Shown here: piece after piece, positions 3,864 to 59,912 of the stretch
Layout: each line of letters starts with the position of its first letter
Numbering within the stretch: the first letter of the stretch is position 1
NCBI GenBank assembly: GCA_016125135.1
Contig: WGMJ01000010.1
Coordinates: forward strand, 35,885 to 99,884
Length of the DNA stretch: 64,000 bases
DNA from: Alphaproteobacteria bacterium
GTDB lineage: Bacteria > Pseudomonadota > Alphaproteobacteria > Micavibrionales > Micavibrionaceae
Reading direction: 5' to 3'
Notes under the pieces: generated by a model
Databases searched by the model: none
Seen by the model: the letters and a program-made list of their open reading frames with translations, nothing else
Told to the model about the DNA's origin: nothing
Made by a program: the position numbers and the translations under genes

Positions 3864-4292
3864 ATGTCTATACCTACAAAAGAAAGCCTTAAGCAAAAGG
3901 CAAAAACTGTCCGTAAATTTCTAAACGATAAATACCAAGTGGATGTTTCTCATGGTCACTGCATGGAAATCATATCGCAAGTCCTTGGTTTTAAGGACTG
4001 GAATACGGCGTCTGCCTCATTGAAACCCAAAGCCAAACAAGACCTATTACCAATTCACATCAAAACAGTTGGAGATATGAGGAAAGCATTGGCGTTATAT
4101 GATGACGACACAGCGATTTTTGACGGTGAGTACGAATTCAAAATTCAGAATTTTATCAACGACATTGATGCTGAAGATTGGGACAAGGACACCATCCTTA
4201 CCCAAGAATTCAGCCTTGTTCTCGAAGAGTTTGTTCCTGACATTGCCAGCTTTAAATTAAAAATCGAGCATGAGAGTCTCACCTTCTTTTAA
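3864..4292 (+). CDS. Hypothetical protein; AT-rich moron on the opposite strand to the packaging genes
   Basis: ORF track 3855..4292; the ATG at 3864 is preferred. The N-terminus (KQKAKTVRKFLNDKYQVDVSHGHCMEIISQVLGFKDWNTA) resembles a short helical domain seen at the N-terminus of proteins often annotated as glyoxalase-superfamily. The gene is visibly lower in GC than its flanks. Confidence 0.65.
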   Translation: MSIPTKESLKQKAKTVRKFLNDKYQVDVSHGHCMEIISQVLGFKDWNTASASLKPKAKQDLLPIHIKTVGDMRKALALYDDDTAIFDGEYEFKIQNFINDIDAEDWDKDTILTQEFSLVLEEFVPDIASFKLKIEHESLTFF

Positions 4293-32820: not shown

Positions 32821-33099
32821 TTATTTCTTGTTTACAGCTTCTTTCAGTTCCTTACCGGCCTTGAATTTTGGCTGTTTTGAGGCAGGGATCTGGATTTTCT
32901 CGCCTGTACGCGGGTTACGGCCTTCAGAGGCAGCGCGTGTCGAGGTTACGAAAGTACCGAAATTTACGAGGCGGACTTCCTCACCCTGTGACAGGGCTTT
33001 TGTAATTGTTGAAAGCACGGCTTCCAGTGTGTCTTGTGCTTGCGCGCGTGGCAGGCCTGTGTCGTTTGCGATTGCATCAATCAGTTCAGCTTTATTCAC
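32821..33099 (-). CDS. hupB: HU-family DNA-binding protein
   Basis: MNKAELIDAIA...RNPRTGEKIQIPA...KAGK. Confidence 0.95.
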   Translation of the reverse strand: MNKAELIDAIANDTGLPRAQAQDTLEAVLSTITKALSQGEEVRLVNFGTFVTSTRAASEGRNPRTGEKIQIPASKQPKFKAGKELKEAVNKK

Positions 33100-33204
33100 T
33101 TATATCTCCCGTAGGTTGACGTTTGAAAAGACCCTGCTAAACCGCGGAAAAGTGCGCCTTTGCAGGAACAATATGATTATTTTTAGGCCTTTTCGGGGGA
33201 AATC

Positions 33205-35634
33205 TCAATGCCGGACGATGGTTTTTTCCGAGTTTTCGGTGGATTTTGCCGGTAAGTCACTGATTTCGCTTGGTTTCTCTGTGCTCAGCGGCGTTGGCAT
33301 AGTTACCAGAACATGGTGCAAAACCTCCTCGATTGTGCTTACGGGCACGATTTCGAGGCCTTTTTTCACGTTTGCAGGGATGTCAGCAAGGTCTTTTGCG
33401 TTATCCGCCGGAATAAGCGCCTTCTTGATGCCGCCACGCAGCGCTGCCATCAGCTTCTCTTTCAGGCCGCCTATCTCGGTGACGTAGCCGCGGAGGTTTA
33501 CCTCGCCTGTCATGGCGATGTCTTTACGGATGGGGATCTGGGTGAGGACCGAAATAATGGCGCTCACCATCGCGGCACCGGCGGAAGGGCCATCTTTTGG
33601 CGTGGCGCCCTCGGGCACGTGAACGTGGACGTTTGTTTCTTTCAGCTTCTCGTAATCAATGCCGAACTGTGCCGCACGGGATTTGATCAGCATCTCGGCA
33701 ACGGTGATGGATTCTTTCATCACGTCTTTCAGGTTACCGGTGGTGGTGACTTTACCGTCTTTACCAGGGAAGGTGACGGCTTCAATAGAAAGCAGATCGC
33801 CACCGGCTTCGGTATAGGCAAGGCCGTTCACAACGCCGATTTTATCTTGTTCGTCAATCTCACCGTATTTGTATTTGCGTACGCCGGCATATTTTTCAAG
33901 GTTGGACGGCGTAATAGACAAGCGTTTGCGGCCTGACATGAGGATCTCTTTCAACGCTTTGCGGCAGAGATTGCTAATCTCGCGCTCGAGGTTACGCACA
34001 CCGGCTTCCCGTGTGTAGTAACGGATCAGGTTCAGGATTGCTGCGTTGTTGATAGAGAATTCGCTGTCTTTCAGGCCGGTCGCTTTCATCTGCTTCTTGA
34101 GCAAATGTTTCAGCACAATCTGTAATTTCTCATCTTCGGTATAGCCGGGGATGCGGATAATCTCCATGCGGTCAAGTAACGGGCGCGGCAGGCTCAGCGA
34201 GTTTGCCGTACAGATAAACATGACTTGCGAGAGATCATAATCGAGATCAAGGTAATGATCGTTGAATGTATGGTTCTGTTCAGGGTCAAGAACTTCAAGA
34301 AGGGCCGATGACGGGTCGCCGCGCCAATCAGAACCAATCTTATCAACCTCATCAAGCAGGAAAAGAGGGTTATTGGTTTTCGCTTTTTTCATGCTCTGGA
34401 TAATTTTACCCGGCAATGCGCCAATGTAAGTGCGGCGGTGCCCGCGTATTTCGCTCTCATCACGTACGCCGCCCAAAGCGATACGCACAAAGTTACGATT
34501 TGTGGCTTTGGCAATAGATTGCCCCAGCGATGTTTTACCAACCCCTGGCGGACCAACGAGACACAGAATAGGGCCTTTAATGTGTTTTGTACGTTGTTGA
34601 ACGGCTAGAAACTCGAGAATACGCTCTTTGACCTTATCAAGGCCGTAATGGTCGGTATCAAGAATTTTCTTCGCAGCCTTGATATCGCTTTTCAGCGCGC
34701 TGTATTTTTTCCATGGCAGGCTAAGAACCCAGTCAAGGTAATTGCGGATAACGGTTGCTTCTGCCGACATGGGGGACATCTGGCGAAGCTTTTTCACTTC
34801 GCTACGGGCTTTGTCTTTCGCGTCTTTTGAAAGTTTGGTTTTCTCGATACGCTTTTCAAGCTCGAGCATTTCATTCATAAAGCCGTCATCGCCTTCTCCG
34901 GTCAGCTCTTTTTGAATGGCTTTCATTTGCTCGTTCAAATAGAAGTCGCGCTGGTTTTTCTCCATTTGCTTCTTCACGCGCGCACGAATACGGCGTTCGA
35001 CTTGCAGCACACCAATCTCGCCTTCCATCAAGGCATAGATTGTTTCCAAACGCTCGATGGGCGAAGCGGTTTCCAGCAGGCGCTGCTTTTCTTCAATCTT
35101 CAGAACCATGTGCGAGGCAATTGTATCGGCCAGTTTGTCTGTGTCATCGATCTGGTTAATTGCGACGATGACTTCCGGCGGGATTTTTTTGTTCAGCTTC
35201 ACATACTCTTCGAATTGCGAGATAACCGCACGGCCAATTGCTTTTGATTCATCATCGCTATCTTCATCAACTATCAGAATTTCGACATGGGCTTCGGCGT
35301 GGTCTGTGCTGTCATTGAAATGGGTGATGCGGGCGCGCTGCTGGCCTTCGACCAGAACTTTGACGGTGCCATCAGGCAGTTTCAAAACTTGCAGAACCGT
35401 GCCAATTGTTCCTGTTGTATGCAGGTCGCTGATTGGCGGGTCTTCCGTTACACCGGTTTTTTGTGTCACGAGTAAAACTTTTTTCTCGCCCGCCATCGCC
35501 TTATCCAGCGCCTTCACCGAACGCTCGCGGCCGACAAAGAGGGGGACAATCATGTGCGGAAACACGACAATGTCACGCAAGGGTAAGACAGGGTAGCTAT
35601 TCAAGGATGAAGGCGTCTCGGTCGTGGTTATCAT
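33205..35634 (-). CDS. lon: Lon protease (endopeptidase La)
   Basis: 809 aa. Walker A GPPGVGKTS and the catalytic Ser region PKDGPSAGAAM. Confidence 0.97.
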   Translation of the reverse strand: MITTTETPSSLNSYPVLPLRDIVVFPHMIVPLFVGRERSVKALDKAMAGEKKVLLVTQKTGVTEDPPISDLHTTGTIGTVLQVLKLPDGTVKVLVEGQQRARITHFNDSTDHAEAHVEILIVDEDSDDESKAIGRAVISQFEEYVKLNKKIPPEVIVAINQIDDTDKLADTIASHMVLKIEEKQRLLETASPIERLETIYALMEGEIGVLQVERRIRARVKKQMEKNQRDFYLNEQMKAIQKELTGEGDDGFMNEMLELEKRIEKTKLSKDAKDKARSEVKKLRQMSPMSAEATVIRNYLDWVLSLPWKKYSALKSDIKAAKKILDTDHYGLDKVKERILEFLAVQQRTKHIKGPILCLVGPPGVGKTSLGQSIAKATNRNFVRIALGGVRDESEIRGHRRTYIGALPGKIIQSMKKAKTNNPLFLLDEVDKIGSDWRGDPSSALLEVLDPEQNHTFNDHYLDLDYDLSQVMFICTANSLSLPRPLLDRMEIIRIPGYTEDEKLQIVLKHLLKKQMKATGLKDSEFSINNAAILNLIRYYTREAGVRNLEREISNLCRKALKEILMSGRKRLSITPSNLEKYAGVRKYKYGEIDEQDKIGVVNGLAYTEAGGDLLSIEAVTFPGKDGKVTTTGNLKDVMKESITVAEMLIKSRAAQFGIDYEKLKETNVHVHVPEGATPKDGPSAGAAMVSAIISVLTQIPIRKDIAMTGEVNLRGYVTEIGGLKEKLMAALRGGIKKALIPADNAKDLADIPANVKKGLEIVPVSTIEEVLHHVLVTMPTPLSTEKPSEISDLPAKSTENSEKTIVRH

Positions 35635-35699
35635 AATACTTTCCCAAGGGGTCTTTAGAGGGGCATGTGTATGCCCCCATTTTATATCACTCTAAAAGG

Positions 35700-35727
35700 A
35701 AATAGTTAAGGCTCGAATAATATCAAG
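35700..35727 (-). promoter_or_regulatory. Candidate RpoH (sigma32)-type promoter for lon: CTTG-N18-CTATTT
   Basis: On the minus strand, CTTG lies at 35727-35724 and CTATTT at 35705-35700. This fits the alphaproteobacterial CTTG-N17/18-CYTATNT pattern. Confidence 0.3.
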
Positions 35728-35745
35728 CCTTGGAAATCCTAGGTT

Positions 35746-36393
35746 TTAGGCCTTTTTATCGGGCGCAGCACCGGGGATTTCAGCACGGCTTGTGACCACA
35801 TGGTCAATCAGGCCGAATTCCTTGGACTCTTCAGCTGACATGAATTTGTCGCGCTCGAGTGCATCTTCAATCACTTTCAGCTTCTGGCCTGTGTGCTTGA
35901 CGTAGATTTCGTTCAAACGACGACGCAGGCTGAGGATTTCTTTTGCCTGAATTTCAATATCAGTTGCCTGACCACGTGCACCACCTGAAGGTTGGTGAAC
36001 CATCACGCGTGCATTTGGTAGTGCATAGCGCTTGCCAGCAGCGCCCGCTGTAAGTAGAAGTGAGCCCATAGAGCAAGCCTGACCGATACAAACTGTTGAT
36101 ACATCGGGCTTGATATATTGCATTGTGTCGTACATCGCCAAGCCTGCTGTTACAACGCCGCCCGGTGAGTTGATATACATAGAGATATCTTTGGTCGGGT
36201 TTTCTGACTCAAGGAACAGAAGCTGCGCGCAAATAAGTGTCGACATATGGTCATGCACATCGGCCGTCAAGAAGATGATGCGTTCTTTCAAAAGGCGCGA
36301 GAAAATATCGTATGAACGCTCGCCGCGGTTTGTCTGCTCGACAACCATCGGGATCAGATCCATAACAACTTCTTCGGGGTGCAGGTGACTCAT
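35746..36393 (-). CDS. clpP: ATP-dependent Clp protease proteolytic subunit
   Basis: Segments [23 protein letters not shown] and GQACSMGS (catalytic Ser), plus the downstream HQP segment. Confidence 0.97.
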
Positions 36394-36502: not shown

Positions 36503-37228
36503 TTATATAGATGCCGAAGACAACTTATAAAGCTTATAAGGCAAGTTCGAAGGCTTTGTATTATTGGGCGTGTTCTTATCGGCAAAGCATATGCTGGTGT
36601 TGAGTGTAAATCCGGCCTCTGTAGCGATACGCTCTATGTCGTGGCTACTCCAGAAATAATCTGTTACTTCAGCGACCAGCGCATTATCGGCAGCGTATAT
36701 TTTTACTTGATAGGGTGTACCGCTTTTCACATTATTTTCAGGTGAAATACCTTCGTAATAAGCATGACGATAAAAAACATTCTCGGGGTTTGCAGTCACA
36801 ACAATAAGTAACCCATTTGGTTTCAGATGATGTTGGACATCTTTAAACGCGGCGTATAAGTCTTCTGCGGTGTTGATGGCGGGGGGAACAAAAATCATAA
36901 AGCTGATATCGAACCGCAGGCCCTCAGCTTCTTCCATCGTTGTACTGAATTGGAGGTTTTTATGTTGAAAATTCTCTTGGGCTGTTTCAATCATTTTTTC
37001 AGAAGGGTCGTAGCCGAAAGCCTTCATGGAATATTCTGTTGCTGCCTTGTAGGCCAGCCAGCCTGTTCCACAGCCATAGTCAAGTATGGAGGCGTTCTCC
37101 GGAGCTTCTGCCAGAAAGGGTTGTATAGAATGCCAGATAAGCTCTTTTTCGCCGCCTCGTTCCAAAGATAGCGTTTTAAATCCCGCAACATTCCTGTTTT
37201 GAAGATAGTCGTTCTGGTTTTTTGTCAT
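36503..37228 (-). CDS. Class I SAM-dependent methyltransferase
   Basis: Motif I ILDYGCGTGWLA. The gene is AT-rich. The start is uncertain (ATG at 37228 or GTG at 37261). Confidence 0.75.
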   Translation of the reverse strand: MTKNQNDYLQNRNVAGFKTLSLERGGEKELIWHSIQPFLAEAPENASILDYGCGTGWLAYKAATEYSMKAFGYDPSEKMIETAQENFQHKNLQFSTTMEEAEGLRFDISFMIFVPPAINTAEDLYAAFKDVQHHLKPNGLLIVVTANPENVFYRHAYYEGISPENNVKSGTPYQVKIYAADNALVAEVTDYFWSSHDIERIATEAGFTLNTSICFADKNTPNNTKPSNLPYKLYKLSSASI

Positions 37229-37286
37229 GAATGGTTTTTTATAATTGAAAAAACTGACCACTTAAAGACTAAAAAGTGAAAGATGA

Positions 37287-37922
37287 TTAAAACTCTTTCC
37301 CGTTATCCCAATGATACTGGAACTGCGTGTAATAGCTCTCGGCAAGTGTGGGGCTTTTAATTAATATAATTCTTATAGGGTCGCGCATTTTTATTAGCGC
37401 CACCTTGTCGCCGTAAATATAATAGGGCGCATGCGGCGTGACAGCGCTTTCAGGCACAAGCCGGTAATTCTTTGATGCCCATTTGCTTTCGTTTTTTGAC
37501 GGATCCGTGAGGAGCCCAAGCGTGCGGATATTCCGCTCGGTACGGCGCTTGAACATTTCCAGCATCTCTTTGGGGTAGAGTGATTTCCAGAGTTCATCAT
37601 CAACAGGGCTGATACGCACATCACCGCCTCCTTTGAGTGTTTCTTCAATGTCGCGCCAGCATTTCAGCATCGCCTCACGCCCCTGCCACAAATTCACGTT
37701 AAATGGCTCGCGTTTTATTTTAACGCCGGGGTCATCGGTAAACTCGATATCGTATTTCTCGAAAGTGAGCTGGATAATTTTCATCGTCTCGGCGCGCGGG
37801 TTACCAGCGCCTGATTCAATCTGCCCGATGGCGGCGGGTGAAATGCCACTAAGCTTTGCTAAATCCTTCTGTGTCCAGTCGAGCAGGGCGCGGGCGGCTT
37901 TCATTTGGGCGAGTGTAATCAT
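37287..37922 (-). CDS. XRE-family regulator with an uncharacterised roughly 140-aa C-terminal domain (paralog 1)
   Basis: MITLAQMKAARALLDWTQKDLAKLSGISPAAIGQIESGAGNP. Collinear similarity to 40573..41208. Confidence 0.8.
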   Translation of the reverse strand: MITLAQMKAARALLDWTQKDLAKLSGISPAAIGQIESGAGNPRAETMKIIQLTFEKYDIEFTDDPGVKIKREPFNVNLWQGREAMLKCWRDIEETLKGGGDVRISPVDDELWKSLYPKEMLEMFKRRTERNIRTLGLLTDPSKNESKWASKNYRLVPESAVTPHAPYYIYGDKVALIKMRDPIRIILIKSPTLAESYYTQFQYHWDNGKEF

Positions 37923-38055
37923 AGAAAATTCCTAGTTTCTTCACTTATAATATAGAAAAAATCTAAAATATTGTATTAAAACTATATTTTTCTTGGGTTT
38001 TGGGCGCCCCTCAGGCATAAATATTTCCATAACAAATTTAACCAAGGAGCGGGAA

Positions 38056-38445
38056 ATGAAGAAAGTAGTATCAACGGGTGTGTCGTTATCAGTGATGTCG
38101 GCAAAGGATGTGTTTAATGGCCTGTCTGAAAAAACGGCTACGACGATGCGGGAAATTGTTTTGCGAGGCGAAGCGCTGCCGGAGTTTTACAAGCTTCCGC
38201 CTATATTCAAGATAAACATTGTAAGGTCTGCAGCTGGCGCATTCGAAGCGGCGCGCGATCCTAATACGCATTTCGAGCTATACACAGAAAACGTATTTGA
38301 AACTTTTATGAACGGGGAGTTTCCACATGGCCTACGCGGTACCAAGGAGATGATTGAGGATTTGCGTGACCGTGAAGACACGCAGCGCTATGTGTTGGCC
38401 ATGCAGTGCCTGCGCAAAGCGTATGATGAATTTGTAGCGAAATAA
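38056..38445 (+). CDS. Hypothetical protein, member 1 of a three-gene tandem paralog family
   Basis: RBS aaggag. Shares the pattern E-I/M-x-x-G/N-x-x-P-x-F-Y-x-L...K...AA with the next two genes. Confidence 0.65.
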   Translation: MKKVVSTGVSLSVMSAKDVFNGLSEKTATTMREIVLRGEALPEFYKLPPIFKINIVRSAAGAFEAARDPNTHFELYTENVFETFMNGEFPHGLRGTKEMIEDLRDREDTQRYVLAMQCLRKAYDEFVAK

Positions 38446-38458
38446 GAGGGAAAGTAAA

Positions 38459-38833
38459 ATGGAGAAATTAGACGAAGAAACAGTATTGATACTGGAGGCC
38501 ATGATTAATAATCAGGCACCAAGGGCGTTTTATTCATTAAAGGCGCGCGAAACAAAACGTGCAGTTCGTGATGCGGCGAAACTCCTGCGGCAAGATGGAC
38601 GTATGCAGGCGGCCATTACCAAGCGTGATGAGGAATTGATTGCAAGATTCAACATGGTTGCGAAGGATGATTTTGGCGTGCCCATAGAGCAATATGGCAT
38701 TAGCGAGTATTTTCCCCACGCGTATCAAAGGTATTGCTTAGAGCCCCTTGCAGAAATTCAAAAAGAGGCGGCAAAGGATGCGCTTGCTAAAGCAACGGAT
38801 GCAATTATTAACCCCGTTCCCGTATACAAGTGA
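38459..38833 (+). CDS. Hypothetical protein, member 2 of the tandem paralog family
   Basis: EAMINNQAPRAFYSLKARETKRAVRDAAKLL. Confidence 0.6.
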   Translation: MEKLDEETVLILEAMINNQAPRAFYSLKARETKRAVRDAAKLLRQDGRMQAAITKRDEELIARFNMVAKDDFGVPIEQYGISEYFPHAYQRYCLEPLAEIQKEAAKDALAKATDAIINPVPVYK

Positions 38834-38841
38834 GGGCGTAA

Positions 38842-39207
38842 ATGACAGATCAACTCAAAGAAGCCTTTAAAGGGGCGTCCAAAGAGGCAGCCTTAGCCGT
38901 ACAGGAGATTGTTGTTTGTGGATACGTGCATCCGGATTTTTACTGGCTCTCTGCAAGCTCCAAACTGTATGTCATGGGAGGTGCCGCAATAAGGTTTGAT
39001 GCGGCATTGAAGCGGCAAAATGACCCGCTAGAAGATTATATGAATGGCTGCATGGCGGAGATGCTTGAAACACCTGCTCCTTTGAGCGGAGCTGATGATG
39101 CAATCGCAAGGATTGCAGAGATAAAAGAGGAGGCTACCCACTCTGCACGTGTCCTTGCATCGCGCTGTATGGATCAATCCTTCCGCGTTTACTTGGAGAA
39201 CAAATAA
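38842..39207 (+). CDS. Hypothetical protein, member 3 of the tandem paralog family
   Basis: QEIVVCGYVHPDFYWLSASSKLYVMGGAAIRFDAAL. Collinear with member 1. Confidence 0.65.
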   Translation: MTDQLKEAFKGASKEAALAVQEIVVCGYVHPDFYWLSASSKLYVMGGAAIRFDAALKRQNDPLEDYMNGCMAEMLETPAPLSGADDAIARIAEIKEEATHSARVLASRCMDQSFRVYLENK

Positions 39208-39236
39208 AAAAAGCGCCCAGATCGGGCGCTCATTTT
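39206..39236. terminator. Bidirectional terminator between the convergent units
   Basis: aaaaaaAGCGCCCagatcGGGCGCTcatttta. Confidence 0.65.
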
Positions 39237-40455
39237 AAGGCTGTTTCAATTCAGGCGCGGGCGATTTGGCAGGTAATCTCAACTTGTCAGGGTGCACCCA
39301 CTCCTGTGCTTTGAAGCCTTGTAATTGCGGTGGTGTATCATCAACCAGACGTTTGATATTCAACCCTTCCAGTGATGTTTTAGGCTTCATCTCGTCCCAT
39401 CTGCCATGCAGGCCGGCGCGCTCAATGGCTTCTTTCAAACGCTTGATGTTGTCTTCAATATTTCCACCTGTATATATTTCCGCCTCATCGCTATCTTCAA
39501 GTAGCTGTATATAAACATGAACCTGCAGATTTCCTTGTGCATCAAGCAATGTGCCATCAACATCATAAGCCACAATATCTGCAATTTCTTCTTCCGGCGC
39601 ACCTGTTTGTAGGAAGTTGGCGGGAACGGCAGATTCTCCGCCGCGTGCAATTATGAACTGCCGCAATTTCTCTACCGTTTCATCTGAATAGCGTCCTCCC
39701 TTATATACAACATCACCTGATACAAGCTTGTTGTAGAATTCTTCAGGCGTTGGTGATGAAAACATTGCGCTGCTGATGTCGCGAACGCGGCATAGAACGG
39801 CCTCGTTATTAAGTGCGGCAGGCATAAAGCGCCATGTATTCAAATGCGGGTTTTCTGCTAAGGCATCAATGTTCAGGAGTCCTATAGGGGTGAAAATTCT
39901 ATTTGAGTTAGGAACAGGGCCATTCCCGCCCAATGCTTCCAGTCGCTTTATCATTTCATTGATGAGGATTTCTGCCGCAGGATAGAAATCGGGCGCTGAA
40001 AGTAGACTATCAAATGAATGCGGAAGCGCGGCTGTACTTAACTCCTGCCCGTATTTCTCGAACAGGTGACATACTTGATGCGTCCAGTAGCCTAGTAGTT
40101 CAGATTCGTAAAGCAGGGAGCCAAATTTGCCACGCTTGGAGGCATAAAAGAATTCTTCGGCATATTTCTCTCCGTGATAATCTACATAGTGCTCCCATAT
40201 ATTGCTGCTCCTAGCTTTAAGTTCATTAAGGCTGGAATTAACAAAGCGCTTTTCAGTCATCACTTCAGCTAGCATCTTCAGTGTGTAGGATTTTTCAGCG
40301 GCGGTGAAAGTATTATCACGAAGCAGGCGGTCAATTGCTTTTTCTGCTTCAAAAATACTTTTCTTATCTGACAGCATGTTAATTGCTTCAATGTCTATAC
40401 CGCCCACAATCTGGTTGGTGCCTGCTGCTGCCTGATGTTCTTGTTTGATAGCCAT
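39235..40455 (-). CDS. Hypothetical 406-aa protein with a C-terminal HAD-like motif set (DVDGTL ... IYTGG ... LVDD)
   Basis: ORF track. IADIVAYDVDGTLLD lies at aa 291-305 and LVDDTP at aa 370-375. The N-terminal 290 aa are unrecognised. Confidence 0.6.
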   Translation of the reverse strand: MAIKQEHQAAAGTNQIVGGIDIEAINMLSDKKSIFEAEKAIDRLLRDNTFTAAEKSYTLKMLAEVMTEKRFVNSSLNELKARSSNIWEHYVDYHGEKYAEEFFYASKRGKFGSLLYESELLGYWTHQVCHLFEKYGQELSTAALPHSFDSLLSAPDFYPAAEILINEMIKRLEALGGNGPVPNSNRIFTPIGLLNIDALAENPHLNTWRFMPAALNNEAVLCRVRDISSAMFSSPTPEEFYNKLVSGDVVYKGGRYSDETVEKLRQFIIARGGESAVPANFLQTGAPEEEIADIVAYDVDGTLLDAQGNLQVHVYIQLLEDSDEAEIYTGGNIEDNIKRLKEAIERAGLHGRWDEMKPKTSLEGLNIKRLVDDTPPQLQGFKAQEWVHPDKLRLPAKSPAPELKQP

Positions 40456-40572
40456 TTGTCCCTCTCTTGCTTTTTGTTTTGTATGAAGGGGAGGCTATAG
40501 CAGCGTTTACATAGTGTCAATTTTTATGTACTATAATACATTTTAAGTGTATTATTTACGAGGAAGGTTCAT

Positions 40573-41208
40573 TTGATAGACATTTCACAAATAAAAGCAG
40601 CACGTGCGTTACTGGACTGGACGCAGGCTGACCTCGCTGAAACCAGCGGGATATCGCAGCGGGCCATTGCCAAAATCGAACTGGGTAAGGGTAATCCGCG
40701 CGAAGATACACTTGTGGCGCTACGCGGGGCTTTTGAAAATAACGGCATCAATTTTATCGGCACGCATGGCTTGGAGAAAAAACAGGAACGCTTCAACATG
40801 ACGAGCTTCACGGGGCGCGATGGTATGTTCAAGGTCTGGGCCGATATTGATAAATGTTTCCCGCGTGGTGGTGAGATTATGCTTGCAAACCTTGATGACA
40901 GGCTGTGGGACAAACATTACCGCGCCGAGCTGATAGCGGAAAACAAGAAGCGCGATAAAAGGGGAATAACATTTCGCGGGCTTTTATGCGAAGGTGACAG
41001 CCATACGCTGAATAAGCCAGAATTCTACCGCACGGTCAGTAAGGACGCGTTTGGGGATATCCAGTACTACATCTACGCTGACCGCGTTTGCTTTATGATG
41101 TTCAATCAGGAGCCGTTTCGTTTCATCCTGATACAAAGTGCGGGGCTTTCCGATATGTTTCGTGCACAGTTCGAACTGAACTGGGCGAGAGGTAAGAAAA
41201 TCAAGTAA
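40573..41208 (+). CDS. XRE-family regulator with the same uncharacterised C-terminal domain (paralog 2)
   Basis: MIDISQIKAARALLDWTQADLAETSGISQRAIAKIELGKGNP. TTG start with the RBS gaggaagg. Confidence 0.8.
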   Translation: MIDISQIKAARALLDWTQADLAETSGISQRAIAKIELGKGNPREDTLVALRGAFENNGINFIGTHGLEKKQERFNMTSFTGRDGMFKVWADIDKCFPRGGEIMLANLDDRLWDKHYRAELIAENKKRDKRGITFRGLLCEGDSHTLNKPEFYRTVSKDAFGDIQYYIYADRVCFMMFNQEPFRFILIQSAGLSDMFRAQFELNWARGKKIK

Positions 41209-41716
41209 TGCGCGCCAAACACTGCCCATTTGTATCGCAGTGAAATAGAGCTGCTTGTGCCGAGAAAGGCTCAAGGGTTATTGCGGGCAGGTCAAGGCAG
41301 GTATTCTCACGTGTGCGTGCAAGGGTTATATGCGGGAAATAGTTATCACCATGCCCTGTGAGCGGCGTTAAGCCGGTGGTTTCGATAAAGAAATTGTGTA
41401 GTTGTAAAATCTCCGGCGTTTTTTCAATCTCAAGCCCATGCCATTCATATCCTGCGTGTCTGTCACCGCCTCCATGAATATAAAGTGCCTTTGAGTTTAT
41501 ATGGATAGGTGCGTGGGCAAGCGGGTTGCTGGCTTTTCCATGTAAAAAATCCTCCGTACATTCAAACTGTGCAACGGTGATATGCGGGATCGAATGAGGG
41601 GGAACACCAAGGGCTAGATGGCCCTCGGCAATGTCTTTAAAATACAGCTTACAGTAATTTACAATGGCGTTGTTCTCACGCGGGGGCAAGGGCAACGCGA
41701 AGTTATAGCGCGGCAT
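41201..41716 (-). CDS. 2H phosphoesterase superfamily protein (LigT / 2'-5' RNA ligase-like)
   Basis: Two H-x-T motifs (PHITVAQF and PHITLART) in a 171-aa protein. It starts 3 nt after the acnA stop. Confidence 0.7.
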   Translation of the reverse strand: MPRYNFALPLPPRENNAIVNYCKLYFKDIAEGHLALGVPPHSIPHITVAQFECTEDFLHGKASNPLAHAPIHINSKALYIHGGGDRHAGYEWHGLEIEKTPEILQLHNFFIETTGLTPLTGHGDNYFPHITLARTRENTCLDLPAITLEPFSAQAALFHCDTNGQCLARIT

Positions 41717-41719
41717 AAA

Positions 41720-44392
41720 TTACGCCGCGGCGAGTGAACGCAGAACGTAGTGCAGAATGCCACCGTTTTTGAAGTATTCAATCTCGTCCAGCGTATCGAT
41801 GCGGCAAAGAACTGTTATTTCTTCGGTCTTGCCATCAGGGCGTGTGATTTTAATTGTCACATCCTGACGGGGCTTAAGGCCTGACGCGATACCGGCAATA
41901 TCAATTGTCTCTTCGCCTGTCAGCTTCAATGTTTGGCGTGTCATGCCGTCTTTGAACTGGAGCGGAAGAACGCCCATACCCACCAGATTAGAACGGTGGA
42001 TACGCTCGAAGCTTTCGGCAATAACGGCGCGAACGCCCAGCAGTACCGTACCTTTTGCAGCCCAGTCACGGCTTGAACCTGTGCCGTATTCTTTACCTGC
42101 AAAAACAACAAGCGGTGTGCCGTCTGCCTGATATTTCATCGCAGCGTCGTAAATTGGCATTTCTTCACCTGATGGTACATATTTCGTCATGCCGCCTTCA
42201 ACGCCGTTTAACATTTCGTTTTTAATACGGATGTTGGCGAACGTACCGCGCATCATGACTTCATGATTACCACGGCGTGCACCATACGAGTTGAAATCCG
42301 CGTAGGTGACGCTATGGTTCGTCAGGTATTTGCCGGCAGGTGAATCCTTCTTGATAGAACCTGCTGGCGAAATATGGTCGGTTGTAATTGAATCACCAAA
42401 AAGGGCGAGAACACGCGCGCTTGCGATATCTTTAACCGGTTTTGGCTCTTTGCTGATGCCCGCGAAGTAGGGCGGGTTTTGCACGTATGTGGAGCTATTA
42501 TCCCATGAATAGGTTTCGCTCCCTGCGGCACCGCCAATGGCTTGCCACTCTTTTGGCCCCAAGAACACGTTTGCATAGCGGCTCTTGAACATTTCAGGTG
42601 TTAAACACTGCTCGACTGTTTTGCGCACCTCTTCGTTTGAAGGCCAGATGTCTTTCAGGTAAACATCTTTTCCGTCCGCGCTCTTACCAATCGGGTCTTT
42701 TGTCAGGTCAATATTCAGCGAACCTGCGAGGGCATACGCCACACATAATGGAGGCGAAGCAAGGTAGTTTGCTTTCACGTGCGGGTTTACACGCCCTTCG
42801 AAGTTTCTGTTGCCTGAGAGAACACTGGCAACGGTGAGGTCGCCTGCTTCAACGGCTTTTGCAATATGGTCAGGCAAGGGGCCCGAGTTACCAATACATG
42901 TTGTGCAACCATAACCAACAAGGTTAAAGCCCATTGCATCAAGGTCTTTTTGCAGATCGGCTTTTTCAAGGTAGTCTGTAACAACTTGCGAGCCTGGTGC
43001 GAGGGATGTTTTCACCCATGGCTTCACTTTCATGCCCAGTGCATGGGCTTTGCGGGCCACAAGACCTGCCGCCACCATAACAGACGGGTTTGAAGTGTTT
43101 GTACAGCTTGTAATGGCGGCAATCACAACATCACCGTTTGAAAGGCTGTAATCAGTGCCTGCAACGGCGTGTGTTTTCGTTTCAGGGAACGACTCTTTAA
43201 AGGCCGGTGCTGCTTTTGAAAGCAGGACACGGTCTTGCGGGCGTTTTGGCCCTGCGAGTGATGGTTCAACTGTACCAATATCAAGTTCAAGCGTATCGGT
43301 GAAGACAGGATCAGGCGATGACGCATCACGCCACATACCTTGTTCTTTTGCGTAGGCTTCAACCAGTTTTGCGCGGTGCGGGTCACGGCCTGTGAAGTTC
43401 AAATAGCGGATTGTCTCGGCATCGATCGGGAAGAAACCACATGTTGCGCCGTATTCAGGCGCCATGTTTGCAATTGTTGCACGGTCAGCGAGCGACATAT
43501 TATCAAGGCCCGGGCCGAAGAATTCGACAAATTTATTGACCACACCTTTTTTACGAAGCATTTCAGTAACGGTAAGAACAAGGTCAGTTGCCGTTGTGCC
43601 CTCTTTTAATTTGCCGGTGAGTTTAAAGCCAATGACTTCGGGGATCAGCATCGAAACAGGTTGGCCGAGCATCGCGGCTTCAGCTTCAATACCGCCAACA
43701 CCCCAGCCAAGAACGCCGAGGCCATTCACCATTGTTGTGTGGCTGTCCGTGCCCACAAGCGTATCGGGGTAGGCAACTTGGGCGCCTGTGCGCTCGTCTT
43801 GTTCAACCCAAACAGTTTGCGCGAGATACTCTAAATTAACTTGGTGGCAAATGCCTGTGCCTGGTGGCACAACGCGGAAGTTTTTGAAAGCATTCTGGCC
43901 CCAGCGCAAGAACGCATAGCGCTCGCCGTTGCGTTGAAACTCAAGTTCAACGTTCTGTTGGAACGCACCGCCATTACCAAAAGCATCGACCATCACAGAG
44001 TGGTCAATGACAAGGTCAACAGCTGTGAGCGGGTTAATTTTTTGCGGGTTACCACCAAGCGCTTTTACGCCTTCGCGCATCGCGGCCAAATCAACTACGG
44101 CAGGAACACCTGTAAAATCCTGCATCAGCACGCGGGCAGGGCGGTAGGCAATTTCGTGGCTCGAGCGTTTATTCTTTTGCCAGTCAACAACGGCTTGGGC
44201 ATCTTCTGCCTTCACTGTGCGGTCATCTTCGAAGCGGAGCATGTTTTCGAGGAGCACTTTAAGCGAGAAAGGAAGCTTGGAAATATCACCGAGTTTTTCA
44301 GCGGCTGTTTTCAACGAGAAATAATCATAGTTTTTCCCATCAACTGTCAGCGTTTTGCGGGCTTTAAGTTGGTCGTGACCTGTAAATGTCAT
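41720..44392 (-). CDS. acnA: Aconitate hydratase A
   Basis: 890 aa, with aconitase Fe-S cluster regions ([28 protein letters not shown]). Confidence 0.97.
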
Positions 44393-44541: not shown

Positions 44542-45825
44542 ATGAATTTTATCAAGAACCTGTTTTCATCGAACAAAGGCGCCCAGAAACTCGACCGTGA
44601 CCCTGACCGTTACGAGCGCGAGAAGCGGGTTGCGCGTTCAGAAGACAGGGACGAGCGCATGGCGCTTGCCAAAAACAAATATACGCATCAGGAAATTCTT
44701 TATTATCTGGCCCAGAACGACCCTGACCCGGGTGTACGGCAGGCGGTGGCAGAAAATGAATCAACCCCCGTACAGGCGACGCCTGTTTTGGCGCGCGACA
44801 ACAACGTTGATGTGCGTATGGCACTGGCAAAGCGCTTGGTTGATCTGTTGCCCGACCTTTCGCATGATAAACATAGCCAGCTCTATGCATTTGCAGTGCA
44901 GGCATTGGGTACGCTTGCACTTGATGAGGTTTTGAAAATCCGTATGGCGCTTTCAAGCGCCTTGAAAGACCATACGCATACGCCGCCTAAGATTGCAGGG
45001 GATCTTGCACGTGACATCGAGCGCGAAGTATCGGAGCCGATTTTGCGTTTCTGTGCCGCGTTGGCTGATGCGGATTTGATCGACATTTTGCGCAACCACC
45101 CCGCAAGCTGGGCAGTACAGGCTGTTGCCGGCCGTGAACAGATTAGCGGACTTGTATCGGCAGCCGTTATAGATACGAATGATGTGCCGGCAGGGGAGAT
45201 ACTCCTGAAAAACGAGGGCGCTGAAATTACAGTTGAGACGCTCGGGTTTATTGTTGAAAAATCAAAAGAATTCCCGCAGTGGCAAAAGCCGATTGCTGTG
45301 CGTAAACAGCTTCCCCCCGAGATTGCACGTGATTTGGCCAAATTTGTTGATGATGCGGTGAAGAACCTTCTGCTTGAGCGTTCCGACTTTGATGCTGATA
45401 CAATTGAAGAAATTACAGTGATTACGCGCCGTCGCCTGAACTTCCTCGAGCAAGAGGAAAGCGGTGACCAGAGCGATGCGGCAAGCCGCGTGAAAGCCTT
45501 GTTGAAGGAAGGCAAGCTGAACGATGAGGTGGTGATGGATGCTTTGGCTGTTCGTGACCGTGAATTTGTGATGATTGCGTTGGCAGGGCTTGCTAAATGC
45601 CCGTTGGGAACAATTGAAAAGATATTTGATATGCAGGCGCCCAAGCCTGTTGTGGCGATTACATGGAAAGCAGGTCTTTCCATGCGCACGGCGCTAAAGC
45701 TGCAACAGGAAATTGCACGTATACCGCAGAAAGAATTGATTTTCCCGAAAGGCGGAACCGATTACCCGCTCGATAAAAAAGAGTTGGCATGGCAGCTCGA
45801 TTTTCTGGGTATTGAAGCGGCTTAA
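44542..45825 (+). CDS. DUF2336 domain protein
   Basis: 427-aa HEAT-like repeat protein typical of Alphaproteobacteria (recognised from memory). Confidence 0.65.
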   Translation: MNFIKNLFSSNKGAQKLDRDPDRYEREKRVARSEDRDERMALAKNKYTHQEILYYLAQNDPDPGVRQAVAENESTPVQATPVLARDNNVDVRMALAKRLVDLLPDLSHDKHSQLYAFAVQALGTLALDEVLKIRMALSSALKDHTHTPPKIAGDLARDIEREVSEPILRFCAALADADLIDILRNHPASWAVQAVAGREQISGLVSAAVIDTNDVPAGEILLKNEGAEITVETLGFIVEKSKEFPQWQKPIAVRKQLPPEIARDLAKFVDDAVKNLLLERSDFDADTIEEITVITRRRLNFLEQEESGDQSDAASRVKALLKEGKLNDEVVMDALAVRDREFVMIALAGLAKCPLGTIEKIFDMQAPKPVVAITWKAGLSMRTALKLQQEIARIPQKELIFPKGGTDYPLDKKELAWQLDFLGIEAA

Positions 45826-45833
45826 GCTTAAAT

Positions 45834-46319
45834 TTATTCGCCTTCGCCAACTGGCTCTGAATTCAACTGAACGAAATTCTGGATTCCTTGCAGTTTGATA
45901 GACTCAAGCGTTGTTTCCAGATGGTCAATATGGCCTTCTTCATCAGCGAGAATTTTCAGGAACAGGTCACGGCTCACATAATCCTGCGCTTTTTCACATA
46001 CGGCAATAGCTTCGCGGTAAGCATCGCGGCCGCCATATTCAAGCTTCAAATCATTCTCGATGATTTCCTGTACGTTTTCACCAATCAGGAGTTTATCAAG
46101 TGTTTGTAAATTCGGCAGGCCTTCAAGCAGAAGAATACGCTTGATGAATAAATCGGCATGCTGCATTTCCTCAATGCTTTCTTTGTATTCATGCTTGGCG
46201 AGCTTTGTCAGGCCCCAATCTTCCAGCATACGTGAGTGCAGGAAATACTGGTTGATCGCAGTCAGTTCCTTTTTGAGACCAATATTAAGATGCTCGATAA
46301 CTGTTTTGTCGCCCTTCAT
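45834..46319 (-). CDS. bfr: Bacterioferritin
   Basis: MKGDKTVIEHLN...LTAINQYFLHSRM..DWGL..L...EYKESIEEMQHAD. Confidence 0.95.
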   Translation of the reverse strand: MKGDKTVIEHLNIGLKKELTAINQYFLHSRMLEDWGLTKLAKHEYKESIEEMQHADLFIKRILLLEGLPNLQTLDKLLIGENVQEIIENDLKLEYGGRDAYREAIAVCEKAQDYVSRDLFLKILADEEGHIDHLETTLESIKLQGIQNFVQLNSEPVGEGE

Positions 46320-59543: not shown

Positions 59544-59912
59544 ATGATTACGTTAAGTAAAACATTCACCATTGAAGCGGCGCATTATTTGCCAGAGCGT
59601 CCTAACCCGCATGGTCACTCATATGAGGTAGAAGTATGGGTCAAGGGTGATGAAAATAGCGACTACGTGATAGGCGAGGCAAAATTCGACCAAAAAGCGT
59701 CGGCAGTAGTTTCACAGCTTGATCATAGAGTTTTGAATGACGTTATACCTGTACCAACGACAGAAAACATTGCCCGCTGGATTTGGAACAATCTAGAAAG
59801 TGAGCTATCCTTGTTTAAAGTTGTCGTGCGCCGCCCAACAATTAAAATGGCTTGTGAATATTATGGAGGGAATTACGGTATACGTGGCTATGCTTTTACA
59901 CAGCCTAAATAA
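59544..59912 (+). CDS. queD: 6-carboxytetrahydropterin synthase / 6-pyruvoyl-tetrahydropterin synthase family
   Basis: FTIEAAHYLP...HGHSYEVEV. Confidence 0.8.
   Translation: MITLSKTFTIEAAHYLPERPNPHGHSYEVEVWVKGDENSDYVIGEAKFDQKASAVVSQLDHRVLNDVIPVPTTENIARWIWNNLESELSLFKVVVRRPTIKMACEYYGGNYGIRGYAFTQPK

Follow-up and report, generated by a model that had tools for sequence, protein, structure and literature searches.

In a 64,000-nucleotide stretch of contig WGMJ01000010.1 (assembly GCA_016125135.1), hereafter the window, a block of genes at positions 36503-41716 lies between clpP and acnA and contains two regulator genes, XRE1 and XRE2. Each of them is divergent from one other unit, which codes for three small proteins (P1, P2 and P3) in the case of XRE1 and for a 406-residue protein, P406, in the case of XRE2. 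As judged from sequence comparison and a structure model, both regulators belong to an unnamed one-component family that joins an XRE/Cro helix-turn-helix (HTH) to a C-terminal domain of the TrmBL2 type with a PLD fold (XRE–TrmB_C regulators). The reading that we favour, with a little better than even confidence, is that these regulators control their divergent neighbours within a native block that does not form a module, and that XRE2 and P406 make up its one conserved pair. The features on which this reading turns are as follows.

37287-37922, minus strand: XRE1 gene, 211 amino acids (aa), HTH_3
37923-38055, unstranded: XRE1/P1 divergent control region, 133 bp
39235-40455, minus strand: P406 gene, 406 aa
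40456-40572, unstranded: P406/XRE2 divergent control region, 117 bp
40573-41208, plus strand: XRE2 gene, 211 aa, TTG start

An earlier sequence-only reading of this DNA had drawn the gene layout, and every open reading frame (ORF) was found at its coordinates and on its strand, with the two XRE genes each divergent from one unit across gaps of 133 bp (XRE1/P1-P2-P3) and 117 bp (XRE2/P406). The same reading had described two collinear regulators of 211 aa, each with an HTH. Indeed, XRE1 and XRE2 align over their full length (40% identity, E 3e-53), and HTH_3 (PF01381) matches them with 45.0 and 46.6 bits, respectively, for a cut-off of 23. The TTG start of XRE2 agrees with the N-terminus of the whole family. 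XRE1, in which the XRE-type HTH occupies residues 1-55 and is followed by the predicted PLD-fold domain of the TrmB type, scores 258 bits against the family hidden Markov model (HMM). PF01381 is matched by 39/39 aligned family members. Only the N-terminal 55 residues match models in Pfam, NCBIfam, PADLOC and PHROG, all of them for a generic XRE HTH. No Pfam model covers the C-terminal region, and PF01978, the winged helix of TrmB, finds no match in the 39 members, even at E <= 1.

The C-terminal domain of about 140 aa is common to XRE1 and XRE2, as had been proposed; its description as unknown is superseded, Foldseek and hhalign both assigning it to the TrmB/TrmBL2 type. The AlphaFold2 (AF2) model of XRE2, built on a 39-sequence family alignment, has a pLDDT of 94.6. 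When this model is compared with the PDB by Foldseek, the top matches are archaeal TrmBL2 (5bpi, E 6.6e-7) and TrmB (3qph, 2f5t), followed by the PLD-fold proteins Nuc, NucT, Zucchini and FAM83 DUF1669 (E 8e-5 to 2e-3). XRE2 ends at residue 211, directly after the PLD-like domain, and the second, sugar-binding beta-barrel subdomain is absent. At the sequence level, hhalign aligns the XRE family with three TrmB neighbours of P406-family genes (96.5%, E 7.5e-10) over 192 columns that include the entire C-domain, and a C-terminal I-x-N…F-E-x-L-W helix is common to the XRE family and to bacterial TrmB regulators of about 250 aa. An XRE/Cro-type HTH, as these alignments place it, stands where TrmB-family regulators have a winged helix.

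Residues K8, A9, A10, R11, W16 and E36 of the HTH and R153, F200 and W204 of the C-domain are invariant in the 39 sequences, and D91, R135 and Y168 of the C-domain are near-invariant. The HKD motif, HxK(x)4D, is absent from the C-domain of these sequences and no His or Lys is conserved there; hence, the PLD fold is without an HKD active site. A reading of the C-domain as an active PLD nuclease was ruled out on the missing motif. In the literature searched, the coverage of which was limited and so gives no proof of absence, the XRE–TrmB_C architecture is not described. It appears undescribed in the libraries searched as well, and is still a variant of the one-component regulator.

P406 is the partner of XRE2. 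The sequence-only reading had held that no cargo protein resembles a nameable family, which stands for P1-P3 and fails for P406, where a HAD phosphatase domain is found. Three parts can be distinguished in the protein: residues 1-115 are lineage-specific, residues ~118-250 form a conserved helical core (W124-x-H126-x-x-C129-H130-L-F-E133, R186, N195), and residues ~290-390 form the HAD domain (D298-V-D300-G-T302, T329-G-G, K359, D372-D373). All four HAD motifs, I (DxDGT), II, III and IV, are thus present in the P406 of the window; the HAD-like motif noticed earlier is real, and the four motifs are conserved in an alignment of 61 sequences. An exhaustive HMMER search gives 71 relatives of P406 at E <= 1e-3, and a word-indexed search gives one close homolog, P0040, with 43% identity. 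R186, D298, T302, L340, K359, D372 and D373 are invariant in the 61-sequence alignment. W124, H126, C129, H130, E133, Y135, N195 and P212 are near-invariant in the family, while position 300 is occupied by D or E and position 329 by T or S. PF08282 is matched by 20 of these 61 relatives (best E 3e-14), and the family profile finds the HAD phosphatase 4qjb in the PDB (E 3.5e-6) through motifs I-II only.

About 30 residues separate motifs I and II, as well as motifs II and III, so that there is no cap insertion in the HAD domain, which we take to be of the capless (C0) class. This classification is reportedly that of Burroughs et al. in 2006. The W-x-H-x-x-C-H-L-F-E signature of the helical core matches nothing known, and a metal site made up of its H/C/H/E residues is possible. 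P406 is, on its motifs, a putative capless HAD phosphatase. The family has no match in IMG/VR or in plasmids and is not described in the literature searched, where limited coverage again means no proof of absence; it appears undescribed in the libraries too, and is still a variant of the HAD phosphatases.

The neighbourhoods of P406-family genes carry the argument for the pair. Fifteen independent contexts other than that of the window were readable. In six of them (P0049/L095-96, P0046, L108, L110, P0054, P0117), a TrmB regulator of 248-264 aa stands immediately upstream and divergent; apart from this regulator, only a second family or HAD paralog recurs as a neighbour. A metagenome-assembled genome (MAG) of Patescibacteria is the source of one relative, and SLH-domain or type IV pilin-like genes are present on other contigs. 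As the family member is divergent from such a regulator in six of the 15 contexts, XRE2–P406 has the look of a genuine pair in which the DNA-binding domain has been swapped. The window thus repeats, with another DNA-binding head, a pairing found in unrelated bacteria. The earlier proposal that each XRE gene is the local regulator of its divergent neighbour is reasonable in this light and gains comparative support for XRE2–P406.

Several side observations were made in the P406 family. A second family member often accompanies these genes (L010, L095), as with the 306-aa paralog found downstream at L095:5134-6054. On a 7-kb contig (L010), P0040 follows carD and a 156-aa protein that matches the P406 C-terminus only, and is itself followed by two SBP_bac_3 genes. 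The 156-aa protein (L010:3471-3941) is a stand-alone HAD-only protein in which the second Asp of motif I is replaced by Gly (F-D-I-G-G-T). In one P406-family context (L100:1781-3019 and L114:2045-3283), the divergent upstream gene codes for a Fic/DOC protein with a C-terminal winged helix, not for TrmB, and a phage-type integrase is nearby.

The two control regions contain candidate operators. In the P406/XRE2 region, a promoter-like sequence TTTACA-17-TACTAT (40506-40534) is overlapped at its -35 element by a palindrome TACATA-N11-TATGTA (40508-40530). A 21-bp palindrome, TAATACA-N7-TGTATTA (40534-40554), begins at the last base of the promoter-like -10 element, 39 nt before the XRE2 start codon. 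Related palindromes (GTGCA-N7-TGCAT, GTACA-N7-TGTAC) occur 37-47 nt upstream of XRE2-clade orthologs (L001, L011, L015), and the degenerate motif has a density of 0.04 per kb over all fetched loci and occurs twice in the 64-kb window. There is thus good indirect evidence for the 21-bp palindrome as a candidate autoregulatory operator of XRE2. In the XRE1/P1 region, a sigma-70-like promoter of P1, TAGAAA-18-TATAAT (37922-37951), and an AAGGAG Shine-Dalgarno sequence before P1 are present. Only a weaker, AT-rich palindrome is found on this side, AAATAT-N12-ATATTT (37966-37989), which includes a TAATACA half-site and might conceivably be an operator.

In the mechanism that we propose, each regulator would bind palindromes in its short divergent intergenic region as a dimer or a higher oligomer, held together by the PLD-like domain, and the bound form would act on its own promoter as well as on the one of the divergent neighbour. 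The 21-bp palindrome would be the likely site for XRE2; lying immediately downstream of the -10 element, it implies that XRE2 represses its own gene and controls P406. The C-domain would sense or contact something tied to the phosphatase, either a phosphorylated substrate or product or the protein itself, and this signal would switch the XRE2–P406 pair on or off. A phosphatase-linked signal is the probable one because, in other phyla, the P406 family pairs with TrmB regulators having the same C-domain. XRE1, to judge by its position, probably governs P1-P2-P3 and its own XRE1-MTase transcript, which includes a methyltransferase (MTase) gene. What the analysis shows is how the regulators are built, their homologies, the size of the family, the statistics of its neighbourhoods and the conservation of the palindrome; DNA binding, oligomerisation, ligand sensing and phosphatase activity are functions that we infer.

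Beyond the window, the regulator family is large. A search with XRE2 in 5.8 billion proteins returned 38 clusters, whose members are 210-240 aa long and remain collinear up to the last residue, and one peptide pattern found at least 367 copies, confirmed by tblastn, in GTDB species representatives. Without exception, the best 80 of these 367 copies belong to MAGs, whose labels are Micavibrio, Rhodospirillaceae, Alphaproteobacteria, Rickettsiales, Bdellovibrionales or Pseudobdellovibrionaceae, the last two being where NCBI taxonomy places Micavibrio. Their loci hold 110 copies in 63 assemblies, with at least 17 copies in one MAG, and two or more copies lie within ±8 kb at 18 of 93 loci. Clustering is therefore a habit of the family, and the distance of 2.6 kb between XRE1 and XRE2 is no evidence of a duplicated module. 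Full-length members were found neither in plasmids nor in IMG/VR, where XRE2 is matched by its HTH of 60-70 aa only.

Two tandem arrays were observed in the family. Nine paralogs follow each other within 6.4 kb at L063:7255-13632 (JAQUYN010000002.1, MAG STD2_238), in a MAG with at least 17 family copies altogether, and five paralogs of the XRE–TrmB_C regulator do so at L089:631-5714. Both arrays are interspersed with truncated copies reduced to the HTH and with two recurrent families of 80-150-aa proteins.

The commonest neighbour of a family regulator is a gene for a periplasmic solute-binding protein, SBP_bac_3, which occurs at 21 of 84 non-redundant loci; of its 25 instances, 22 are divergent and lie about 110-170 bp upstream. 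The loci with this pairing include the closest relatives of XRE2 (L001, L015-L017). Other partners vary. In one clade, the regulator has a constant position behind infC, a pair of glycosyltransferase genes and an alpha/beta-hydrolase gene. An XRE1 ortholog with 69% identity, in a 'Rhodospirillales' MAG (L097/L098), lies between argB and citrate synthase and is divergent from a 134-aa orphan unrelated to P1, and an XRE2 ortholog with 55% identity (L011) is divergent from a 114-aa orphan. MTase, P1, P2, P3, P406 and the 2H protein encoded next to XRE2 are encoded at none of 94 family-regulator loci, save for a distant, non-adjacent match to MTase in L045. The idea of a duplicated regulator/cargo unit is not borne out by these loci, where the cargo is missing and the XRE1 ortholog has an unrelated orphan beside it; nor does the gene set as a whole recur at any of them.

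An integrated element was seen elsewhere in the family. In L004:8936-14182 and in L005, an island with a tyrosine integrase begins 290 bp past the regulator gene; besides this integrase, it encodes an AAA_15 ATPase together with a UvrD-like helicase, as well as AlpA. The island is absent from the syntenic L007. This island marks an integration hot spot beside a conserved family member.

The other features of the block and its nearest flanks are the following.

32821-33099, minus strand: hupB, from the ORF map
33205-35634, minus strand: lon, from the ORF map
35746-36393, minus strand: clpP, from the ORF map
36503-37261, minus strand: MTase gene, class I S-adenosylmethionine-dependent methyltransferase
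38056-38445, plus strand: P1 gene, 129 aa
38459-38833, plus strand: P2 gene, 124 aa
38842-39207, plus strand: P3 gene, 121 aa
39211-39231, unstranded: G+C-rich hairpin with a 9-bp stem and a 3-nt loop, in the 27-nt gap between the convergent P3 and P406 genes
41201-41716, minus strand: probable 2H phosphoesterase gene, 171 aa, two HxT motifs and a sub-threshold PF13563 match
41720-44392, minus strand: acnA, from the ORF map

P1 and P3 are paralogs, as had been suspected (28% identity, E 2e-11), and P2 is unrelated to both. The three genes are 8-13 nt apart and each has a Shine-Dalgarno sequence; P2 begins 13 nt after P1 and is preceded by GAGG, and P3 is the last gene of the operon. A profile of P1/P3 searched against 5.8 billion clusters recovers only P1 and P3 themselves, which are also without a match in Pfam, NCBIfam, PHROG, the PDB or phages. 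P2 has no match in Pfam, NCBIfam, PADLOC, PHROG, the PDB or phages, the large protein databases not having been searched with it. HMM searches for P1-P3 in about 110 fetched loci gave no match, and hhalign comparison of P1/P3 and of P2 with the two small-protein families recurring beside family regulators gave probabilities <1%. By eye, all three proteins are compact and helix-rich. On these searches, P1-P3 are true orphans.

Two enzymes stand at the edges of the block. The MTase gene is co-directional with XRE1, 25 nt downstream of it and upstream of clpP, and codes for 252 aa from a GTG or 241 aa from the ATG at 37228. Its product is matched by Pfam Methyltransf_23/25/31/11 (E 1e-11 to 1e-15), its closest PDB relatives are ToxA-type N-methyltransferases (5jdz, 8rdl; E 2.5e-9), and the PADLOC mad2 match spans the methyltransferase core only; it is probably a small-molecule methyltransferase. 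The 171-aa protein encoded beside acnA has, as read from its sequence, H45-I-T and H128-I-T with a LigT-like spacing. It reaches 23.9 bits with PF13563 (cut-off 27) and 15.6 with TIGR02258 (cut-off 65.7), has no sequence match in the PDB, and is a probable 2H phosphoesterase. Its gene starts 4 nt after acnA and is therefore probably co-transcribed with it; the 3' end overlaps that of XRE2 by 8 nt, and the gene is absent from the syntenic acnA locus L092. The MTase gene and the acnA-linked 2H gene are neighbours unrelated to the regulators. Enzymes acting on nucleic-acid ends or nucleotides had been placed at or near these edges; the description is not established by an MTase closest to ToxA-type small-molecule enzymes, nor by a 2H assignment that consists of two HxT motifs and a sub-threshold Pfam score.

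The hairpin between P3 and P406 had been called a single bidirectional terminator. There is one hairpin between the convergent units, as that call requires, but a strong T-run is found only on the minus strand, at the end of P406, with a weak one (CATTTT) on the plus strand.

With respect to composition, the block had been described as visibly AT-rich. Its G+C content (GC) is 46.05%, for 48.3% (standard deviation (SD) 1.6) in equal-sized windows of the 64 kb, of which 13% are at least as AT-rich, and its tetranucleotide distance from the window mean is average, with 43% of windows deviating equally or more. The genes of the block range from 0.433 to 0.497 in GC and from 0.425 to 0.599 in GC at third codon positions (GC3), all of them within 2 SD of the other 54 genes of the window; the lowest score is that of MTase (z = -1.65). 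Thus, composition and GC3 are ordinary when set against the flanks. Elsewhere in the window, two short ORFs exceed every gene of the block in AT content (3864-4292, GC 0.392, z = -2.9; 59544-59912, GC 0.425, z = -1.9). The nearest tRNA, the sole one of the window, is 14 kb from the block. A repeat search at the block borders gave only short direct and inverted matches of chance level, no integrase or transposase is encoded in the block, which has housekeeping genes on either side, and an Rfam scan at E <= 1 gave no match.

Lon, ClpP and AcnA have identities of 73-78% with gene products from contigs that either bear the label uncultured Micavibrio or are metagenome contigs without a label. When synteny from clpP to acnA is examined, relatives carry family regulators near clpP/lon/hupB (L011, L044) or near acnA (L092); the arrangements differ, so that an empty site between clpP and acnA is not available for comparison. 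In the window (32821-36393), clpP is followed directly by lon and hupB, without clpX between them. Family members recur near the clp/lon cluster in arrangements that vary between contigs: a regulator stands right after clpP, together with a 161-aa membrane protein, at L044:2265-4306, and another one is 2.3 kb from hupB-lon-clpP-tig at L011:743-7347. Three cases of tricarboxylic acid (TCA) cycle neighbours were also noticed, namely XRE2 near acnA (window 40573-44392), a paralog 670 bp upstream of a 78%-identical acnA (L092:4654-8666) and the XRE1 ortholog convergent with the citrate synthase gene (L097:1411-2609); this adjacency may be leftover synteny or chance. On the far side of acnA, the flank is ordinary, with a divergent gene for a 427-aa DUF2336/HEAT-repeat protein (44542-45825) followed by a bacterioferritin-like gene (45834-46319).

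These data bear on the interpretation first given to the block, namely that it was acquired horizontally as a small module for defence, effector-immunity or the repair and modification of RNA, under duplicated XRE controllers. Its cargo is lineage-restricted or orphan, XRE controllers are common in defence and restriction-modification (R-M) loci, the HTH resembles C.Kpn2I (4yba, E 1e-11) and PADLOC 'control protein' models, and an MTase together with a HAD-type phosphatase and a 2H enzyme recalls the chemistry of RNA-end repair. We nevertheless consider this interpretation improbable. The ordinary composition and the lack of a tRNA, integrase, transposase or flanking direct repeat at the block speak against acquisition, as does the lack of full-length relatives in 72,556 plasmids, 50,697 phage records and IMG/VR. 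For the cargo, PADLOC, PHROGs, Pfam and NCBIfam give no indication of a defence, effector-immunity or repair role; in PADLOC-DB v2, P2, P3, P406 and the 2H protein have no match, P1 has chance-level ones (E 0.01-0.04), and those of MTase and the HTH are to generic domains only. Moreover, the genes co-occur nowhere and their relatives are at scattered native loci. The MTase resembles enzymes that act on small molecules, the 2H gene goes with acnA and not with the regulators, and these regulators most often stand beside a gene for a periplasmic solute-binding protein. The DNA between clpP and acnA is part of the native chromosome of a Micavibrio-like alphaproteobacterium, specific to its lineage, and is not one module. 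Even less credible is a toxin-antitoxin-like arrangement in which the XRE proteins would be antitoxins or repressors and P1-P3 and/or P406 the toxins. The HTH does match HipB, Y4mF, MqsA and HigA-type antitoxin models weakly, but these matches span the generic HTH only and are far under the family cut-offs. The genes are divergent and not co-transcribed, no toxin family matches the cargo, and the regulators carry a TrmB-type domain of 140 aa and mostly pair with SBP_bac_3.

The serious rival is chance adjacency, since the regulator family is multicopy and the single close P406 homolog is without a regulator on a short contig. The regulators would then be two of many copies scattered among unrelated lineage-specific genes, autoregulating or acting elsewhere, and the meeting of XRE2 and P406 would be a coincidence. 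Clustered copies with widely varying neighbours, the different neighbour of the XRE1 ortholog and the pairing of the closest XRE2 relatives with SBP_bac_3, not with P406, all agree with this explanation, and several further points weigh against the pair. An XRE-family gene next to a P406-family gene is seen once, in this window, and a chance adjacency of about 1% is not negligible given the many regulator copies per genome. The P0040 contig shows no regulator, though it ends 40 bp upstream of the second of its SBP_bac_3 genes, the usual regulator partner. P406 itself scores under every Pfam threshold, its AF2 model, made from two sequences, is unusable (pLDDT 36.6), and the minus strand shows no promoter-like site for P406. 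We know of no ligand for TrmBL2-type C-domains and, with the sugar-binding second subdomain absent, the C-domain of the regulators may therefore only oligomerise. Indeed, the sugar of TrmB is held mostly by this second subdomain, which the XRE2 family does not have (PMC4158304). Against coincidence, a TrmB regulator whose C-domain is homologous to that of XRE2 stands next to the P406-family gene and divergent from it in six of 15 independent contexts in other phyla, and it is unlikely that the same domain would come to lie beside the same family again by chance. The 117-bp common control region also bears a conserved palindrome. We therefore regard coincidence as the less likely explanation, though one to be taken seriously, and retain the reading of XRE2–P406 as a conserved pair.

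A wider version of this reading can be envisaged, which we hold to be rather doubtful. An old two-gene switch would be distributed across phyla, in which the TrmBL2-type domain reads the P406-family protein, its substrate or its product, and the DNA-binding head can be exchanged, being a winged helix in Patescibacteria-like and other lineages and an XRE HTH in the window. The XRE-headed form would have radiated to tens of paralogs in Micavibrio-like epibiotic predators, where it would mostly control periplasmic solute-binding proteins. If so, the paralogs would serve this lineage as a sensory repertoire of its own for nutrients that come from the prey.

These results do away with a false lead, the block being neither a defence island nor one brought by horizontal gene transfer. 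A new regulator architecture is defined, outside Pfam models, in which an XRE HTH is followed by a TrmB-type domain with a predicted dead PLD fold. It belongs to a lineage of bacteria that are obligate predators and about whose regulation hardly anything is known (Micavibrio genome paper, PMC3189940). The pairing of the P406 family with TrmB-type regulators across phyla also opens a way to find by experiment which signal, if any, TrmBL2-type C-domains read. This is not a new kind of system, and its biochemical roles are those that we infer; it gives a handle on regulation in predatory Micavibrio-like bacteria.

Among known systems, TrmBL2 of Pyrococcus and Thermococcus (5bpi, 5bpd, 5bqt) is the closest. 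The C-domain of the XRE family, about 140 aa long, is predicted to have the same fold as the first, PLD-like effector subdomain of TrmB. TrmBL2 (264 aa) keeps this first subdomain and is without some 70 residues of the sugar-binding part (PMC4158304); the XRE family likewise lacks the second, sugar-binding subdomain, and the length layout is alike (PMC4158304). In contrast with TrmB and TrmBL2, the XRE family has an N-terminal XRE/Cro HTH (PF01381) instead of a winged helix (PF01978) and no evident coiled-coil linker, and it is bacterial, Micavibrio-like and highly multicopy. Nothing points to a chromatin-like coating of DNA in this family, as is described for TrmBL2.

The same logic of an N-terminal XRE HTH and a C-terminal domain that does not bind DNA is found in XRE-cupin and other XRE one-component regulators, such as PsdR and PuuR (PMC10965056). 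Regulators of the XRE-cupin type are also often divergent from their target, with a palindromic operator and autoregulation (PMC10965056); the XRE family differs by having a PLD-fold domain of the TrmB type instead of a cupin. The best match of the family HTH is the R-M controller C.Kpn2I (4yba), with E 1e-11 for the family profile and TM 0.8 on the target. C proteins are however about 80-100 aa long, have no extra domain and belong to R-M operons, nothing of which is in the block. The C-domain of the regulators shares its fold with the PLD superfamily (Nuc, NucT, Zucchini) and with the pseudo-PLD domain DUF1669 of FAM83; it differs from the PLD enzymes by the missing HxK(x)4D and would be a non-catalytic PLD fold, like FAM83. 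Finally, P406 is an ortholog of no named HAD enzyme. It resembles the capless ones (KdsC, the phosphatase domain of T4 PNK, FCP/SCP) in its four motifs without a cap insertion, and differs from them in the fusion of its HAD domain to a helical core with the W-x-H-x-x-C-H-L-F-E signature.

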